Of a DNA stretch of 52,662 nt, positions 30,812 through 43,326 are shown piece by piece. Below the pieces are notes generated by a model, which saw nothing but the letters and a program-made list of their open reading frames with translations, was not told the DNA's origin and searched no databases. The translations under genes were made by a program, and so were the position numbers. The DNA lies in the NCBI GenBank assembly GCA_034927475.1, contig JAYFPW010000004.1, forward strand, positions 1 to 52,662, read 5' to 3'. Positions within the stretch are counted from its first letter, which is position 1, and each line of letters opens with the position of its first letter. The DNA comes from Candidatus Elulimicrobiales bacterium. GTDB lineage: Bacteria > Patescibacteriota > Minisyncoccia > Phycocordibacterales > UBA5272.

Positions 30812-31087
30812 ATGAAACTAGTTCTTTATTTTATTTCTCAAAAACAAAAAAGTCCTCACATTTTAACCATTCTTGGTTGGGACGATTATAATGATCCGCA
30901 GTTTTTTGAATTCAATCAAGATTATGAGAATGTTCATTTGCATGAGTTAAAAGACTCTCCCTCTAAAATTTCAAAGTTGTTTTTAACAACAAGCTACACC
31001 GAAGCTTTAAATTTAAAACAAAAGCTTGAAGCTGATGGTTTTGGTGGCAGTAAAAAACTCATTATCAAGAAAATCGTTGACGATTAA
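30812..31087 (+). CDS. Hypothetical protein
   Basis: ORF with ttgaca promoter and terminator; ATG at 30812 preferred. Confidence 0.55.
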   Translation: MKLVLYFISQKQKSPHILTILGWDDYNDPQFFEFNQDYENVHLHELKDSPSKISKLFLTTSYTEALNLKQKLEADGFGGSKKLIIKKIVDD

Positions 31088-31164
31088 TGGTGAAAGACTT
31101 TTTTAAAAAGACTTCTCGCAAGAGGAGTTTTTTATTTTGTCTAAATATGTTAATATTATGAAAA

Positions 31165-31335
31165 AGTGATGAAGGGGCTAATCACTCCGGAGCTTGAGGA
31201 AGAAATATATAAAATATAAAGTAGAACCTCATTAATTAAGCTATAAATCAAGGTGGTACCGCGCTTGGTACGCCAAAGCGAAAGCGGCGGCGACAATCAA
31301 TCGCCCTTGGCAGAAGTCTTGGGCGATTTTATTTT
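31165..31335 (+). promoter_or_regulatory. T-box riboswitch (Ile, AUC specifier) with intrinsic terminator
   Basis: AAGGTGGTACCGCG T-box at 31250-63; antiterminator CAAGG/CCTTG plus GCG/CGC; terminator aatcgccc..gggcgatt-U tract; ATC at 31181. Confidence 0.9.
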
Positions 31336-31350
31336 ATTACAAGTTTAATT

Positions 31351-31413
31351 AAAAATTTTATTTCTTTCAAATTAGGCCCCGCTTCGCGAAAGATTTTCAA
31401 GAAATAAAATTTT
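31351..31413 (+). promoter_or_regulatory. Structured leader element, copy 1 (shared with ndk leader)
   Basis: aattttatttctt-tc-aaatt-aggccccgc-ttc-gcgaaa-gattt-tc-aagaaataaaatt. Confidence 0.6.
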
Positions 31414-31441
31414 CATCAATCAAATTATTAATTATAAAAAT

Positions 31442-34400
31442 ATGGAAAATAAAAATAAGAATATAAACGAAAAAGAATTGGAGGTTTTAAAATTTTGGAA
31501 TGAAAACAAAATTTTTGAAAAATCTCTTTTAAATACAAAAAGAGAAAAAGGGGATAATAATTTTACTTTTTACGACGGCCCTCCATTTGCTACTGGGACA
31601 CCACATCATGGGCATCTTTTGGCTGGGACAATTAAAGACGTTATCCCTAGATTCCAAACCATGAATGGAAAATATGTTCGTAGAATGTGGGGCTGGGATT
31701 GTCACGGGCTTCCAATTGAAAATTTGATTGAAAAGAAATTTAATTTAAACTCCAAAAAAGATATTGAAGATTTTGGTATCGGTAAATTTAATAAAGCTGC
31801 CGAAGAAAGCGTTTTGACTTATGAAAAAGAATGGAAAGAGACTGTGCCAAGATTTGGACGCTGGGTAGATATGGATAATCCATATAAGACAATGGACTAC
31901 ACTTATACAGAATCTGTTTGGTGGGCCTTCAATGAATTGAATAAAAAAGGATTAGTTTTTGAAGGTCATAAAAGTATGCACATTTGTCCAAGATGTGAGA
32001 CAACACTTGCTCAATCTGAAGTCGCTCTTGGCTACAAAGATTTAACAGATATTTCTGTCACAGCAAAATTTGAATTATTGGATGAACCAAATACTTTTAT
32101 TCTTGCTTGGACTACCACTCCTTGGACTTTGCCAGGGAATGTAGCTTTGGCTATAAATTCTGAAGTCGAATATATAAAAGTAAGAATGGAAAATGGTGAG
32201 AATTTAATTTTAGCTAAAGAAAGACTGGCTGATGTTTTGAAAGAAAATAAATATGAAATAGTCGAAGAATTTTTAGGAAAAGAATTAGTTGGTAAAAAAT
32301 ATAAACCAGTTTTTGATTTTTATCTAAACACAAATCTAGAAAATAAAGAAAACCTTTATACTATTGTCGATGCTCTTTTTGTAACTCTCGATACTGGTAC
32401 AGGGATTGTACATATCGCTCCAGCTTTTGGAGAAGATGACTTAGTTTTAGGAAAAGAAAAATCTTTACCGATAATTAAACACGTTGAACCAGACGGAACT
32501 TTTTCTAAAGAGCTTGGAGAATTTGCGGGTATAAAAGTTAAAACTGCAACCGATAATCAATCTGCCGATATTGCAATATTAAAAAATTTAGCTGAAAGAA
32601 ATTTAATTTTTTCAAAAGAAAAATTGGTTCACTCCTATCCTACTTGTTGGCGTTGCGATACTCCGCTTTTAAACTATGCTACAAGTTCTTGGTTTATTGA
32701 TGTGCCTAAAATTAAAGAAAATTTAATAGAAGCTAATTCAAAAATAAATTGGTTGCCAGAAAATATTCGTGATGGAAGATTTGGAAAATGGCTTGAAGGA
32801 GCGAGAGAGTGGGCTGTCTCCAGAAGTAGATATTGGGGAGCACCTCTTCCGATTTGGAAAGAAATAGATGGTGAAGAAGTGAAAATAATTGGTTCTCTAA
32901 AAGAATTAGCTGAAAATAATTTAGCTAAACCAAAAAATGAATACTATTTTATGCGTCATGGCGAGGCTAAACATAATGTAAATGGAGTAGAAGAGTCTCT
33001 AAGAGATCCCGAAAATACTTTAACTGAAAATGGGATTCTTCAAGTCGAAGAGTCAAAGAAAAATAACGATGTAGAATTTGACGTTATCATTTCTTCTCCA
33101 TATTTAAGAACTAGAATGACAGCTGAAATAATGGCTGGAGATAAAAAAGATGAAATTATAATTGATGAGAATTTTAGAGAAATAGAGCTTGGCTCATATG
33201 GTAATGCGAGAAAAGAAATCATTAGAGCAAAATATGGAGAAGGATTTTTGAAGATGAAGACGAAGCTCAACGGAGATGATGAAAGTTACGGAGAAGTTAT
33301 GCAAAGAGTTATGAGAGGTTTGGCAAAATTAGAAAAAGAATATGAAGGTAAAAAAATCTTGATAGTTTCTCATGGAGCGCCGATCCGTATGGCCATAGCA
33401 GTCGGACAACTTTTAACAGAAGAAGAGATTGTTTATGATGATAAAAATGGTTCAGAAATCTATCCAAATACTGCAGAAATAAAAAAGCTGGAGTGGAAAA
33501 TAGTTCCAAGAGATGAAACTGGAGAAATTAATCTTCATCGTCCATATATAGACGAAGTAGTTTTAAAAAGTTCAAACGGAAAAGAAATGAAAAGAGTTGA
33601 ATATGTTTTTGATTGTTGGTTTGAATCTGGTTCAATGCCTTTTGGGCAATTCCACTATCCTTTTGAAAATAGAGAATTATTTGAAAGAAGTTTTCCTGCA
33701 GATTTTATCGCTGAAGGACTCGATCAGACTAGAGGCTGGTTTTATTCTCTTTTAAATTTATCAATTGGTATTTTTGGAAAAGCTTCCTATAAAAATGTAA
33801 TTGTTAATGGACTTCTTCTCGCTGCCGATGGAGAGAAAATGAGTAAGAGTAAAAATAATTATACCGATCCAAATATTCTAGTTGAAAAATATGGAGCTGA
33901 TGCTTTTAGATATTCTCTACTTTCCTCTCCTGTTATCTGCGCAGAAAATACACCGTTTCTTGATTCTGGTGTCGAAGAAAATTATAAGAAAATAGTTGCT
34001 AAACTAGAAAATGTTTTAAGTTTTTACGAGATGACAAAAGATGAAAACTTGACTACAACTTTTTCCGAAAATTTAGACGAAGAAAAAATTAAAAAGAATA
34101 TAAAAGAAAGTTCACTCGATAGTTGGATATTTGCAAGGTTCAATTCTGTTTTAGAAAATACAACTAAAAACGTAAATGAATATAGACTCGATTTAGCTGC
34201 GCGACCATTTGAAAAGTTTATCGATGATTTATCAACTTGGTGGCTAAGACGATCTAGAGAAAGATTGAAAGGGGAAGGCGAGGAAAAAGAAGTCTCTATG
34301 TTTACCCTTTGGAAAATTCTAACTGAGTTTTCAAAAGTGATAGCTCCTTTTATGCCATTCTTAGCGGAGAGAGTTTATCAGTCTCTAAGTTTAGAAAATG

Positions 34401-34900
34401 AAAAACAAAAAGAATCTGTTCATTTAGAAACTTGGCCAGAAGTCTTTATTGACATAGATAGTGAAGTTTTAGGTGAAATGGAAGAAGTGAGAGAGCTTGT
34501 CACAGAGCTTCTAATGATCAGACAAAAAAATAATATTCCTGTAAGACAACCTCTAGCCACAGCCTATATCAATAAAGATATAAAAGAGAAATATATTAAT
34601 ATCATAGCTGAAGAACTAAACGTAAAGAAAATAGAAAAAGGTGACGAAAACAGTTTAGACTTAGTTTTAACAGAAGAGTTGAAAAAAGAAGGGGAGTATA
34701 GAGAGTTTTCAAGAAAAGTTAAAGATTTAAGAAAAGAAAATAATTTAACACCAAATGATATCGCAATTCTTTTTGTTAAAGCTAATAAAGAAAGAATAGA
34801 GCTTATTAAATCTTTTGAAGAAGAAATAAAGAAAGAGTGTAAGCTTTCAGAAATTAAATTTGAAGAAGGAGGGGAAGAGGAAATAAGTTTGAAAAAGTAG
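31442..34900 (+). CDS. ileS: Isoleucine--tRNA ligase (IleRS2 type) with inserted histidine-phosphatase domain
   Basis: DGPPFATGTPHHGH, GWDCHGLP, WTTTPWTLP, DCWFESGSMP, EGLDQTRGWF, KMSKS; internal RHGE..SHG domain. Confidence 0.96.
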   Translation: MENKNKNINEKELEVLKFWNENKIFEKSLLNTKREKGDNNFTFYDGPPFATGTPHHGHLLAGTIKDVIPRFQTMNGKYVRRMWGWDCHGLPIENLIEKKFNLNSKKDIEDFGIGKFNKAAEESVLTYEKEWKETVPRFGRWVDMDNPYKTMDYTYTESVWWAFNELNKKGLVFEGHKSMHICPRCETTLAQSEVALGYKDLTDISVTAKFELLDEPNTFILAWTTTPWTLPGNVALAINSEVEYIKVRMENGENLILAKERLADVLKENKYEIVEEFLGKELVGKKYKPVFDFYLNTNLENKENLYTIVDALFVTLDTGTGIVHIAPAFGEDDLVLGKEKSLPIIKHVEPDGTFSKELGEFAGIKVKTATDNQSADIAILKNLAERNLIFSKEKLVHSYPTCWRCDTPLLNYATSSWFIDVPKIKENLIEANSKINWLPENIRDGRFGKWLEGAREWAVSRSRYWGAPLPIWKEIDGEEVKIIGSLKELAENNLAKPKNEYYFMRHGEAKHNVNGVEESLRDPENTLTENGILQVEESKKNNDVEFDVIISSPYLRTRMTAEIMAGDKKDEIIIDENFREIELGSYGNARKEIIRAKYGEGFLKMKTKLNGDDESYGEVMQRVMRGLAKLEKEYEGKKILIVSHGAPIRMAIAVGQLLTEEEIVYDDKNGSEIYPNTAEIKKLEWKIVPRDETGEINLHRPYIDEVVLKSSNGKEMKRVEYVFDCWFESGSMPFGQFHYPFENRELFERSFPADFIAEGLDQTRGWFYSLLNLSIGIFGKASYKNVIVNGLLLAADGEKMSKSKNNYTDPNILVEKYGADAFRYSLLSSPVICAENTPFLDSGVEENYKKIVAKLENVLSFYEMTKDENLTTTFSENLDEEKIKKNIKESSLDSWIFARFNSVLENTTKNVNEYRLDLAARPFEKFIDDLSTWWLRRSRERLKGEGEEKEVSMFTLWKILTEFSKVIAPFMPFLAERVYQSLSLENEKQKESVHLETWPEVFIDIDSEVLGEMEEVRELVTELLMIRQKNNIPVRQPLATAYINKDIKEKYINIIAEELNVKKIEKGDENSLDLVLTEELKKEGEYREFSRKVKDLRKENNLTPNDIAILFVKANKERIELIKSFEEEIKKECKLSEIKFEEGGEEEISLKK

Positions 34901-42344: not shown

Positions 42345-42551
42345 ATGAAAAATAAAAAACAAGATTATTTCAAAGAAAATAATATAAAAATAGATTATAA
42401 AAGTATTGATATTCTTCAAAAATTTGTTAATCCAAACGGAAGAATTTTGAACAGAAAGAAAACAAATCTTTCTTCAAAAAATCAAAGACTTTTAGCTAAT
42501 GCTATTAAGAGAGCAAGATTTATGGGCTTAATGCCTTATGTGGCTAGATAA
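42345..42551 (+). CDS. rpsR: 30S ribosomal protein S18
   Basis: IDYK, GRIL.R, QR.LANAIKRARFMGLMPY. Confidence 0.96.
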   Translation: MKNKKQDYFKENNIKIDYKSIDILQKFVNPNGRILNRKKTNLSSKNQRLLANAIKRARFMGLMPYVAR

Positions 42552-42613
42552 TCTAGCTAGGCAACTACTGCAATTATTTGCAGTTTTTGTTTTATAGACT
42601 ATTGTCGTTATAC

Positions 42614-42672
42614 AATTTTTATCTTTTTCAAGTTAGGCCCCGCAAGCAAAAACTTTCAAAAGGTAAAAATTT
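42614..42672 (+). promoter_or_regulatory. Structured leader element, copy 2 (shared with ileS leader)
   Basis: aatttttatctttt-tc-aagtt-aggccccgc-aa-gcaaa-aactt-tc-aaaaggtaaaaatt. Confidence 0.6.
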
Positions 42673-42714: not shown

Positions 42715-43326
42715 ATGCATCCAAAAAAAGAAAAAACATTTGTAATTTTAAAACCAGATTCAGTGCAAAGAGGTTTAATGGGGGAAATTATTCAAAGATT
42801 TGAAAGGGTAGGATTAAAAATTGTGGCTATGAAAATGATTTTAGCCACAGAAGAGCAATGTTGGCAACATTATAATAAAGATGACGCTTGGTACACCAAG
42901 ACAGGAAATAGGATTATAGAAAACAGAAAAGCTCAAAATAAACCTATTGAAAAAGAAAATATTGAATATGGAAAAGAAGTAATAGAAGGGTTGGTAAAAT
43001 ATATGACTTGTTCACCAGTAGTGACTATGGTTTTAGAGGGCAATAGTTCTCGCGCTGTAGTAAAAAGACTAGTTGGTGGCACAGAGCCAGCAACAGCTGA
43101 TACAGGAACAATTCGTGGAGACCTCACTTTAGATTCATATTATCTTTGTGACGCTGATGATGGAAGAGCAGTGAGAAATCTAATTCACTGCACAGATCCT
43201 GCGGATGGAGATGGGGAAGCGGAAAGAGAGATATCTGTTTGGTTTAAAGAAGAAGAAATTATAAAGTGGATATCTATTAACGAAAAAATGCTTTACGATG
43301 TTGATTTAGATGGACATTTAGAATAA
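42715..43326 (+). CDS. ndk: Nucleoside-diphosphate kinase
   Basis: EKTFVILKPDSVQRGL.GEII.RFE, GTIRGD, RNLIHCTD. Confidence 0.95.
   Translation: MHPKKEKTFVILKPDSVQRGLMGEIIQRFERVGLKIVAMKMILATEEQCWQHYNKDDAWYTKTGNRIIENRKAQNKPIEKENIEYGKEVIEGLVKYMTCSPVVTMVLEGNSSRAVVKRLVGGTEPATADTGTIRGDLTLDSYYLCDADDGRAVRNLIHCTDPADGDGEAEREISVWFKEEEIIKWISINEKMLYDVDLDGHLE

Follow-up and report, generated by a model that had tools for sequence, protein, structure and literature searches.

What is the same hairpin doing in front of ileS and of ndk? This question is raised by a stretch of 52,662 nucleotides (positions 1 to 52,662 of contig JAYFPW010000004.1, assembly GCA_034927475.1, Candidatus Elulimicrobiales bacterium), which was analyzed as a whole and is termed the window in the following. 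[quoted passage not shown] It is this last alternative that the data support. The element is quite probably a genus-specific, gene-less and non-coding palindromic dispersed repeat, presumably mobile, that is spreading or has recently spread. Insertion polymorphism, the presence of copies inside genes, in antisense orientation and between convergent genes, and the decay of copies in place all argue that regulation is not the purpose of the element; any effect on the expression of ileS or ndk is expected to be a side effect.

Architecture of the two hairpins

The source genome of the window is referred to as G000 and the other genomes of the genus are coded G001-G014. Copy 1 of the hairpin repeat (31351..31413, plus strand) is placed past the terminator of a T-box leader and before the start of ileS. 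It pairs from 31352 to 31413. An AU-rich outer stem of 15 bp, AAUUUUAUUUCUU/AAGAAAUAAAAUU, is followed by a symmetric internal loop (UC/UC), an inner stem of 5 bp (AAAUU/GAUUU) and the apical core AGGCCCCGCUUCGCGAAAG (core AGGCCCCGCTTCGCGAAAG at positions 31374-31392), at the apex of which CGC and GCG are able to form a mini-stem of three pairs. Copy 2 (42612..42672, plus strand) is situated after the rpsR terminator and ahead of the ndk start and pairs from 42614 to 42671. It repeats this architecture with different letters in the stems, i.e. an outer stem AAUUUUUAUCUUUU/AAAAGGUAAAAAUU that includes one U.G pair, the UC/UC loop, the inner stem AAGUU/AACUU and the core AGGCCCCGCAAGCAAAA (positions 42635-42651). 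The calculated folds amount to -13.8 kcal/mol for copy 1 (z -3.4 versus shuffles) and to -13.6 kcal/mol for copy 2 (z -3.3 versus shuffles). Stems and loops of the shared hairpin had thus been described correctly by the sequence-only reading, down to the last sequence detail.

The 9-mer AGGCCCCGC is insignificant by itself, with two occurrences in the DNA and at least two in 27 of 100 shuffles. The likeness of the two elements as a whole is significant because the covariance model R1, built from 13 copies that aligned almost gap-free (alignment A2), scores 76.6 bits on copy 1 (E 2.8e-11) and 60.8 bits on copy 2 (E 3.6e-8). A leader end of the form TAATTATAAAAA(AA)TATG, which had been listed as a further shared feature, is present in both leaders, but represents the ordinary start context of the genome and is not part of the repeat. 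Among the 371 long open reading frames (ORFs) of G000, A makes up 40-62% at positions -11 to -2 and T makes up 77% at position -1, and start contexts of this kind are present in relatives without the element. The rest of the ileS leader (31414..31441, plus strand), ending with TAATTATAAAAAT before the ATG, is such a generic A-rich start context outside the repeat, and a sequence resembling this leader end also precedes ileS in G008 and G007, both of which are devoid of the repeat at this position.

Family size and distribution

A third perfect core is found on another contig of G000, where it separates rplJ from rplL. A strict core pattern matched 15 times in seven of 61 related genomes (G000 included), as compared with three matches for a reversed control pattern; the match in genome G041 is GC-rich, has a different context and was put aside as chance. 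When the covariance model was searched over G000 and other Patescibacteria, as had been proposed at the outset, further homologues were found. R1 yielded 80 matches (E<=0.01) in 12 of the 15 genomes of the genus, with 0 to 18 matches per genome and six in G000. The two copies noted originally are both real and have four further companions in G000, located before rplL, rplJ, ychF and a gene for a PD-(D/E)XK nuclease. No copy is present in G005, G007 and G010, which are complete-enough genomes. R1 found no match in 66 genomes from seven other genera of the family (E<=0.001, stricter filters) and none in 100 other genomes of the order. A wider genome scan with a loose pattern returned at least 121 loci; five of the 80 loci listed pass R1, and the scores of these five, among the matches listed, equal those of genus copies already known; the pattern proved too unspecific to be of use. 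A viral or plasmid carrier was rejected, as none of 50 viral loci found with the loose pattern passed R1. The size of the repeat is about 63-85 nt and the core consensus of the family reads RR-CCCCGC-(2-4 nt)-GCGAAA, meaning that the GG of the core, originally held to be invariant, varies across the copies of the family.

A match to an existing Rfam family, the discovery of which had been named as a possible refutation of a new motif, was not found. At gathering thresholds, Rfam reports only tmRNA and seven tRNAs for the window. At E<=10 and within 31000-31500, the element is overlapped only by a minus-strand match to MIR1435 that reaches 18.7 bits versus a cut-off of 94, and a riboswitch or another known RNA finds no support in Rfam at the element. 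Promoter-like sites occur in the two copies at chance level (2 versus 1.9 expected and 0 versus 1.2 expected), and a test for intrinsic terminators (G+C-rich stem followed by a T run) detected no terminator-like site in either copy. Copies inside genes and inside operons for ribosomal proteins also run counter to a terminator role. In open-access papers and bioRxiv preprints on Patescibacteria and the Candidate Phyla Radiation, we found no report of such elements among the papers listed; the Patescibacteria matches listed concerned CRISPR, TIGR, viruses or metagenome surveys.

Insertion polymorphism, signs of movement and decay

The regions upstream of ileS from 13 other genomes of the genus and of ndk from 12 were compared with those of G000. 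A hairpin of the R1 type occurs in one of 14 ileS leaders and in one of 13 ndk leaders, in both cases in G000 only. In G008, the IleRS of which is 86% identical at the N-terminus, 24 nt separate the T run of the terminator from the ATG of ileS, and in the nearest relatives with regard to ndk, G006 (91% identity) and G008 (90%), the distance from the rpsR terminator to the ATG amounts to 18 and 33 nt, respectively. Judged from these comparisons, both window copies are recent insertions of the G000 lineage into the leaders of ileS and ndk.

The empty leaders bear on the proposal that the element is a cis-acting mRNA-leader RNA, the sense hairpin loop of which binds a protein or the ribosome and thereby controls or raises translation of genes without a Shine-Dalgarno (SD) sequence. 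The same leaders do without the element in 13 relatives in the case of ileS and in 12 in the case of ndk, cores decay in place and no Rfam family is matched, all of which speaks against a leader RNA, and we regard such a function as unlikely. A replacement of the SD sequence by the element had been considered specifically. Translation starts of G000 appear to be SD-less: a 4-mer SD core is found at positions -20 to -4 of just 11 of the 371 long ORFs versus 23 in a background window, and the 3' tail of the 16S gene (C4:123678-125200) contains no CCTCC. Almost no gene of G000 thus has an SD sequence, while only six genes carry the element although 360 of the 371 long ORFs lack the SD core, and a role as SD substitute was rejected. 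Pairing of GGCCCC with rRNA was likewise dismissed, because the 16S gene does not contain GGGGCC and has a single GCGGGG, and because family members differ in the GG of the core.

Filled and empty sites can also be compared inside genes. Site 2 of ligA comprises 138 nt in G012 and G014 versus 69 nt in 12 others (+69 nt), and site 1 comprises 141 nt in G012 versus 84-87 nt in 13 others (+57 nt). In the ELP3-like gene, the insert is absent at the respective site in five of ten aligned orthologues. An origin of the stems as an inverted duplication of the target was rejected, since at ligA site 2 both arms of 22-23 bp are missing from the 12 empty sites. Three loci of G012, C63:207, C37:2275 and C45:283 (before ruvX, after an NYN gene and before nusG), harbor nearly the same element in unrelated flanks. 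They have a stem of about 22 bp in common, and the stems therefore travel with the element. Upstream of a clpC-like gene, the same element (>90% alike) is found in sense orientation in G011 and in antisense orientation in G003 with the same right-hand flank, which we read as an element that flipped in place via recombination between its arms. Decay is apparent as well: in G000, the core of the copy that precedes the PD-(D/E)XK gene has decayed to GAACCCTGCTTCGCAAAA, and the ELP3 copy of G011 and others reach only 34-42 bits with R1.

Other hairpins and insertions occupy some of the same positions. A sister hairpin family (G001:C36:2001-2072, L101) has the same AT-rich stem design and a different core, TTCTTAACCCTAAAGGGCTCCGACAAA. 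In G001 and G003 (L019, L017), members of this sister family are located at the very site of the ELP3-like gene that the genus repeat occupies in other species, with that of G003 being decayed. At the ELP3 site of G008 (L018), there is a third kind of palindromic element, which is GC-rich and has the in-frame reading '...TSPTPPKEGLQTREQESKGNPLLGRGQGE...', and sequences similar to it occur upstream of ndk in G014 (L132) and inside ruvX of G012 (L014). The ELP3-like genes of G009, G005 and G007 (L023-L025) encode a common insertion of 39 residues (VRPKN...SYKKLL) at about residue 345 that is absent in seven other orthologues. In the ileS leader of G009 (L116), the stretch between the T-box terminator and the start harbors another hairpin, whose stems are AT-rich and whose GC-rich core includes GGCTTCGGCGTAGGGCCCCTCTGGGG, at a position comparable to that of copy 1 in G000.

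Location of the copies

Gene names in the following census reflect our reading of N-terminal sequences, except for those confirmed by Pfam. More than half of the copies (46/80) are located 6-101 nt upstream of a co-oriented start, 14 reside in frame inside coding sequence, all in sense orientation, ten are in antisense orientation relative to both neighboring genes, five are placed between the ends of convergent genes and five remain unplaced (contig ends, no long ORF). Genes with a copy upstream of their start include ileS, ndk, rplJ, rplL, rplK, rplB, rplV, rplR and rplO, furthermore fusA, lepA, typA, gatA, aspS, alaS and gyrB, and also ychF, xth, ruvX and the PD-(D/E)XK nuclease gene; the rplJ and rplL products L10 and L12 are confirmed by Pfam. 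Neighbors of antisense copies include efp, rplC, ksgA, gyrA and, in three genomes, a gene for an NYN-domain protein.

With regard to a leader RNA, the frequent position before co-oriented starts is a favorable point, as is the location of the ileS copy past the T-box and within the transcript, with an RNA-library contig spanning leader, element and ileS start. The distribution as a whole fits less well, as the element is not confined to sense 5' untranslated regions: the copies in coding sequence, in antisense orientation and between convergent gene ends fall outside such a function. Alternatively, a mobile repeat may have been co-opted as operon punctuation, in which case the AU-rich duplex would serve as a processing or stabilizing site, e.g. 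for a double-strand-specific RNase, and uncouple cistrons. In line with this idea, many copies reside in operons for ribosomal proteins and translation (rplJ/rplL, rplK, rplB, rplV, rplR, rplO and fusA, by N-terminal reading), and same-site copies are kept in several species with pairing preserved. Processing would, however, cut the mRNAs of ligA, pheT and the ELP3-like gene, the number of copies ranges from 0 to 18 among close relatives that have the same operons, and RNA ends are unreadable from the contigs. Operon punctuation is therefore an unlikely role for the element.

The 14 in-gene copies are distributed over seven sites, have an open frame that extends for 20 codons or more to both sides, and their host genes are confirmed by Pfam. 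The ELP3-like radical-SAM gene contains the element in G002, G004, G014, G012 and, in decayed form, G011. ligA is occupied at site 1 in G012 and at site 2 in G012 and G014. Further sites are a class-V aminotransferase gene (G013, G004), pheT (G001, G014), a gene for a class-II aminoacyl-tRNA synthetase (G012) and recJ (G014). All 14 copies are free of stop codons, and two frames are used for the core, with offset 2 in ELP3 and ligA site 1 and offset 0 in ligA site 2. Because the frames are open and the lengths are multiples of three, we infer that the inserts are translated. One may alternatively think of intervening sequences that are removed or bypassed, such that the in-gene copies would act as tiny introns or as elements of translational bypass and escape translation. 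A conserved and maintained hairpin inside essential genes could be understood on this basis. Removal requires neither the absence of stop codons from all 14 copies nor insert lengths that are multiples of three as in ligA; moreover, the copies make use of two frames, neither a known splicing signature nor an Rfam match to a ribozyme or intron was found, and the RNA-library contig runs across the ileS copy without a joint. Intervening sequences are thus very improbable. Besides its in-frame repeat, the pheT product of G001 (PheRS beta; L048:6-1754) also has an NlpC/P60 domain at residues 357-457 (1.7e-9).

Stem pairing and strand asymmetry

In the 13-copy alignment, 83.3% of the cells are paired, as opposed to 63.4% after shuffling. 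Both sides are changed in 17 of 23 pairs, a value that was reached by none of 500 shuffles. Copies at the same site were also compared between species on the R1 alignment, in 37 comparisons at 17 sites, with comparisons within a site not being independent. In total, 414 stem pairs are unchanged and 303 are changed. The latter comprise 171 pairs in which both sides changed and pairing was kept, 49 in which both sides changed otherwise, and 83 with a change on one side (14 to G.U, 16 to A.C and 53 to other mismatches); a further 23 involve a gap. At ligA site 2, i.e. inside coding sequence, G012 and G014 differ by eight compensated pairs and one single change. Either way, by replacement or by evolution in place, palindromy is restored or selected.

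The two strands of the element are not equivalent. In 76 of the 80 copies, RNA folding yields the more stable structure for the complementary strand, with a mean of -23.8 versus -17.8 kcal/mol. The stems of the sense strand exhibit 65 A.C cells versus 19 G.U cells, and 30 of the 65 fall on one outer-stem position; A.C on the sense strand would be G.U on the complementary strand. By eye, the CCC/AAA flanking the mini-stem would turn into three U.G pairs and UC/UC into tandem G.A on the complementary strand. This strand tolerates the conserved imperfections examined, and the mRNA usually bears the weaker fold. For a leader RNA, whose active hairpin would form in the mRNA, the covarying stems and conserved core are arguments in favor and the weaker fold of just this strand is an argument against; for a punctuation signal it is equally adverse that the better duplex forms on the strand that is not mRNA.

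Several observations weigh against a mobile repeat of the kind proposed here. The orientation of intergenic copies, counted by site, is 30 sense versus 8 antisense (p 4.7e-4) and that of in-gene sites 7:0 in favor of sense, and a bias of this kind is not predicted by random selfish insertion alone. The location of so many copies shortly before co-oriented starts, with many hosts being translation genes by N-terminal reading, fits a role in expression. The compensated changes inside the coding sequence of ligA could reflect host-level selection on RNA structure. The ELP3 and ruvX sites are held by different subfamilies in different species, and part of the signal of compensated change may represent replacement or re-insertion instead of evolution in place. 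No clear target-site duplication was seen by eye when filled and empty ileS, ndk and ligA sites were compared, the flanks being AT-rich and diverged. The 80 contexts contain no autonomous parent element, with Y1 being the only transposase family searched; as for an enzyme partner, this sole family (Pfam Y1_Tnp, PF01797) is found in none of the 15 genomes of the genus versus 6 of 14 controls. The count of 18 copies in G012 is probably inflated by the near-duplicate contigs C48 and C63. Movement, finally, is inferred from presence, absence and duplicates of the element rather than observed.

The orientation bias of the in-gene copies is partly due to stop codons, as antisense elements offer fewer open frames (mean 0.94 per element versus 1.54 for sense); on this basis, seven sense sites out of seven have a p of 0.035. 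For eight of nine antisense copies, the genes on either side run in the direction of the local majority, so transcription and replication are inseparable as causes of the bias. Random orientation relative to genes had originally been named as the hallmark of a mobile repeat. Orientation turned out to be biased, yet in-gene copies and insertion polymorphism indicate a mobile repeat. The bias also counts in favor of the leader RNA and, along with the position before starts and the compensated changes, it keeps the two RNA-level explanations alive, which even when taken together remain doubtful.

Strand asymmetry and orientation could also be explained by a DNA-level host site, at which a hairpin or cruciform binds a host protein of replication, repair or chromosome organization and the fold of one strand matters. 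The excess of A.C over G.U cells, the conversion of CCC/AAA and UC/UC into G.T and G.A on the complement and the collinearity of the bias with the local majority gene direction agree with this notion. Three genomes of the genus (G005, G007 and G010) manage without a single copy, such that the site cannot be essential; in addition, positions are irregular and copies decay in place. We therefore consider a host site highly improbable and return to the presumably mobile repeat.

Comparison with known repeat families

Correia/NEMIS, ERIC and RUP elements constitute bacterial MITE families. Bacterial MITEs in general are described as short, gene-less, dispersed, hairpin-forming and mostly intergenic (PMC10969869). 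The genus repeat is similar: it is gene-less, dispersed and hairpin-forming, lies mostly in intergenic regions near gene starts, is presumably co-transcribed with its neighbors and varies in copy number. With 63-85 nt, no coding capacity and 80 copies in 12 genomes, it resembles MITEs in size and copy number, and the whole repeat is an inverted repeat with stems of up to 22-23 bp. Typical MITEs have terminal inverted repeats matching those of a parent insertion sequence (IS) as well as target-site duplications, whereas the genus repeat is best conserved at its center and not at its termini.

REP sequences and bacterial interspersed mosaic elements (BIMEs) are imperfect palindromes with REP-associated tyrosine transposases (RAYT, Y1 type) that recognize them as single-stranded hairpins, and they exhibit orientation bias and strand-specific structure. 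The genus repeat shares the imperfect palindrome, the orientation bias and the strand-specific structure. In contrast to the REP/RAYT systems, the Y1 (IS200/IS605-like) transposase is missing from all 15 genomes, and a partner of the Y1/RAYT type was rejected on these grounds. While REPs are extragenic, 14 of the 80 copies of the genus repeat lie in genes.

The closest analogue are the Rickettsia palindromic elements (RPE), though by analogy and not as members of one family. RPE are portrayed as repeats of about 150 bp that are often fused in frame to genomic ORFs and that encode a conserved peptide (PMC10969869). RPE and the genus repeat are both small palindromic repeats of a reduced genome, occur in intergenic regions as well as, unusually often, in frame inside unrelated housekeeping genes, and encode no transposase. 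The reading frame is kept and a segment of peptide is added, here by 14 copies at seven sites, with +69 and +57 nt in ligA. The likeness is one of behavior and presumably not of sequence, and the host phylum is a different one. The genus repeat also differs in its length of about 63-85 nt versus about 150 bp, and in using two frames and having a conserved short apical core on a variable paired stem instead of a conserved peptide. Among the genera searched, it is furthermore restricted to a single one, and no genome contains more than 18 copies.

Proposed mode of spread and significance

According to the picture that emerges for the mobile repeat, copies land, or survive, where they are least harmful, i.e. 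in short spacers before starts and in permissive protein loops. Translation of in-gene copies would add loops of 19-23 residues. The apical core (CCCCGC-loop-GCGAAA) may act as recognition site for a putative trans-acting enzyme. The selected fold would form on the strand opposite to most mRNAs, where the imperfections would amount to G.U/G.T wobble pairs and tandem G.A, and the orientation bias may result from selection against the stronger hairpin, either in mRNA or on the lagging-strand template.

A more far-reaching proposal is put forward tentatively. It is possible that the hairpins represent an undescribed kind of mobile element of ultra-small bacteria that is spread and kept paired via a strand-specific, single-stranded folded intermediate in the absence of a recognizable transposase. 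In such an element, the short apical motif would be recognized, the stem would drift and be continually re-symmetrized, and the element as a whole would be able to flip in place. The conserved imperfections, including the A.C found in 30 of 80 copies at one stem position, form wobble or G.A pairs on the strand opposite to the mRNAs only, as judged by eye for CCC/AAA and UC/UC. Such elements may remodel proteins and leaders in genomes that contain nearly no other spare DNA. Stems that evolve by compensated changes, a strand-asymmetric fold and the lack of a Y1 transposase, the sole transposase family searched, point to an undescribed mechanism of maintenance or transposition.

For genome annotation, the motif should be masked as a repeat and not be assigned as a riboswitch or leader element, and a repeat origin should be recognized for the additional loops of LigA, PheT, the ELP3-like enzyme and others. 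A hairpin repeat is still present and tolerated within essential genes of genomes that measure about 0.5 Mb and have nearly no DNA between genes.

Genetic setting of the window copies

Copy 1 is preceded by a divergent T-box leader of ileS (31160..31335, plus strand) with a GGTGGTACCGCG box, a terminator stem at 31300-31327 and a subsequent T run (to 31335, by eye). The leader gives a weak match to RF00230 (19.3 bits, E 0.037) below the Rfam threshold and would escape it. Box and terminator are kept in 12 of 14 ileS leaders of the genus and are absent in G006 and G003. The leader contains an AUC within CTAATCACTC, a possible Ile specifier. As copy 1 resides downstream of the T-box, the read-through transcript would include it. 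A metatranscriptome contig of 361 nt covers 31188-31530, beginning in the 3' part of the T-box and reaching ileS across the hairpin; it contains neither differences nor a joint. The RNA runs X18, X16 and X19 cover the window in parts, with gaps carrying no information. This fits co-transcription of T-box, copy 1 and ileS; library DNA is possible as a source, and the contig shows neither ends nor strand. Contigs of two RNA libraries from one study start at 31187/31188 and stop near 31523-31537, due to either a stable RNA fragment or an assembly effect.

Copy 2 is located downstream of rpsR (42345-42551, plus strand; Pfam Ribosomal_S18, 1.1e-22) and its intrinsic terminator, a terminator-like site at 42567-42593 on the plus strand, and is followed by ndk (42715..43326, plus strand; Pfam NDK, 4.1e-35). 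In G010 (L070, L121, L135), in-frame TGA codons occur in ileS (four), in two ligA pieces (two and one) and in ndk (one), and none are present in the other genomes; TGA may be read as sense in this organism, or the sequences may be misbinned. Downstream of copy 1, ileS (31442..34900, plus strand) encodes a protein with Pfam domains tRNA-synt_1 (4.9e-130) and Anticodon_1, and residues 502-653 of this IleRS match the histidine-phosphatase domain His_Phos_1 (8.4e-30), which splits the halves of the catalytic domain.

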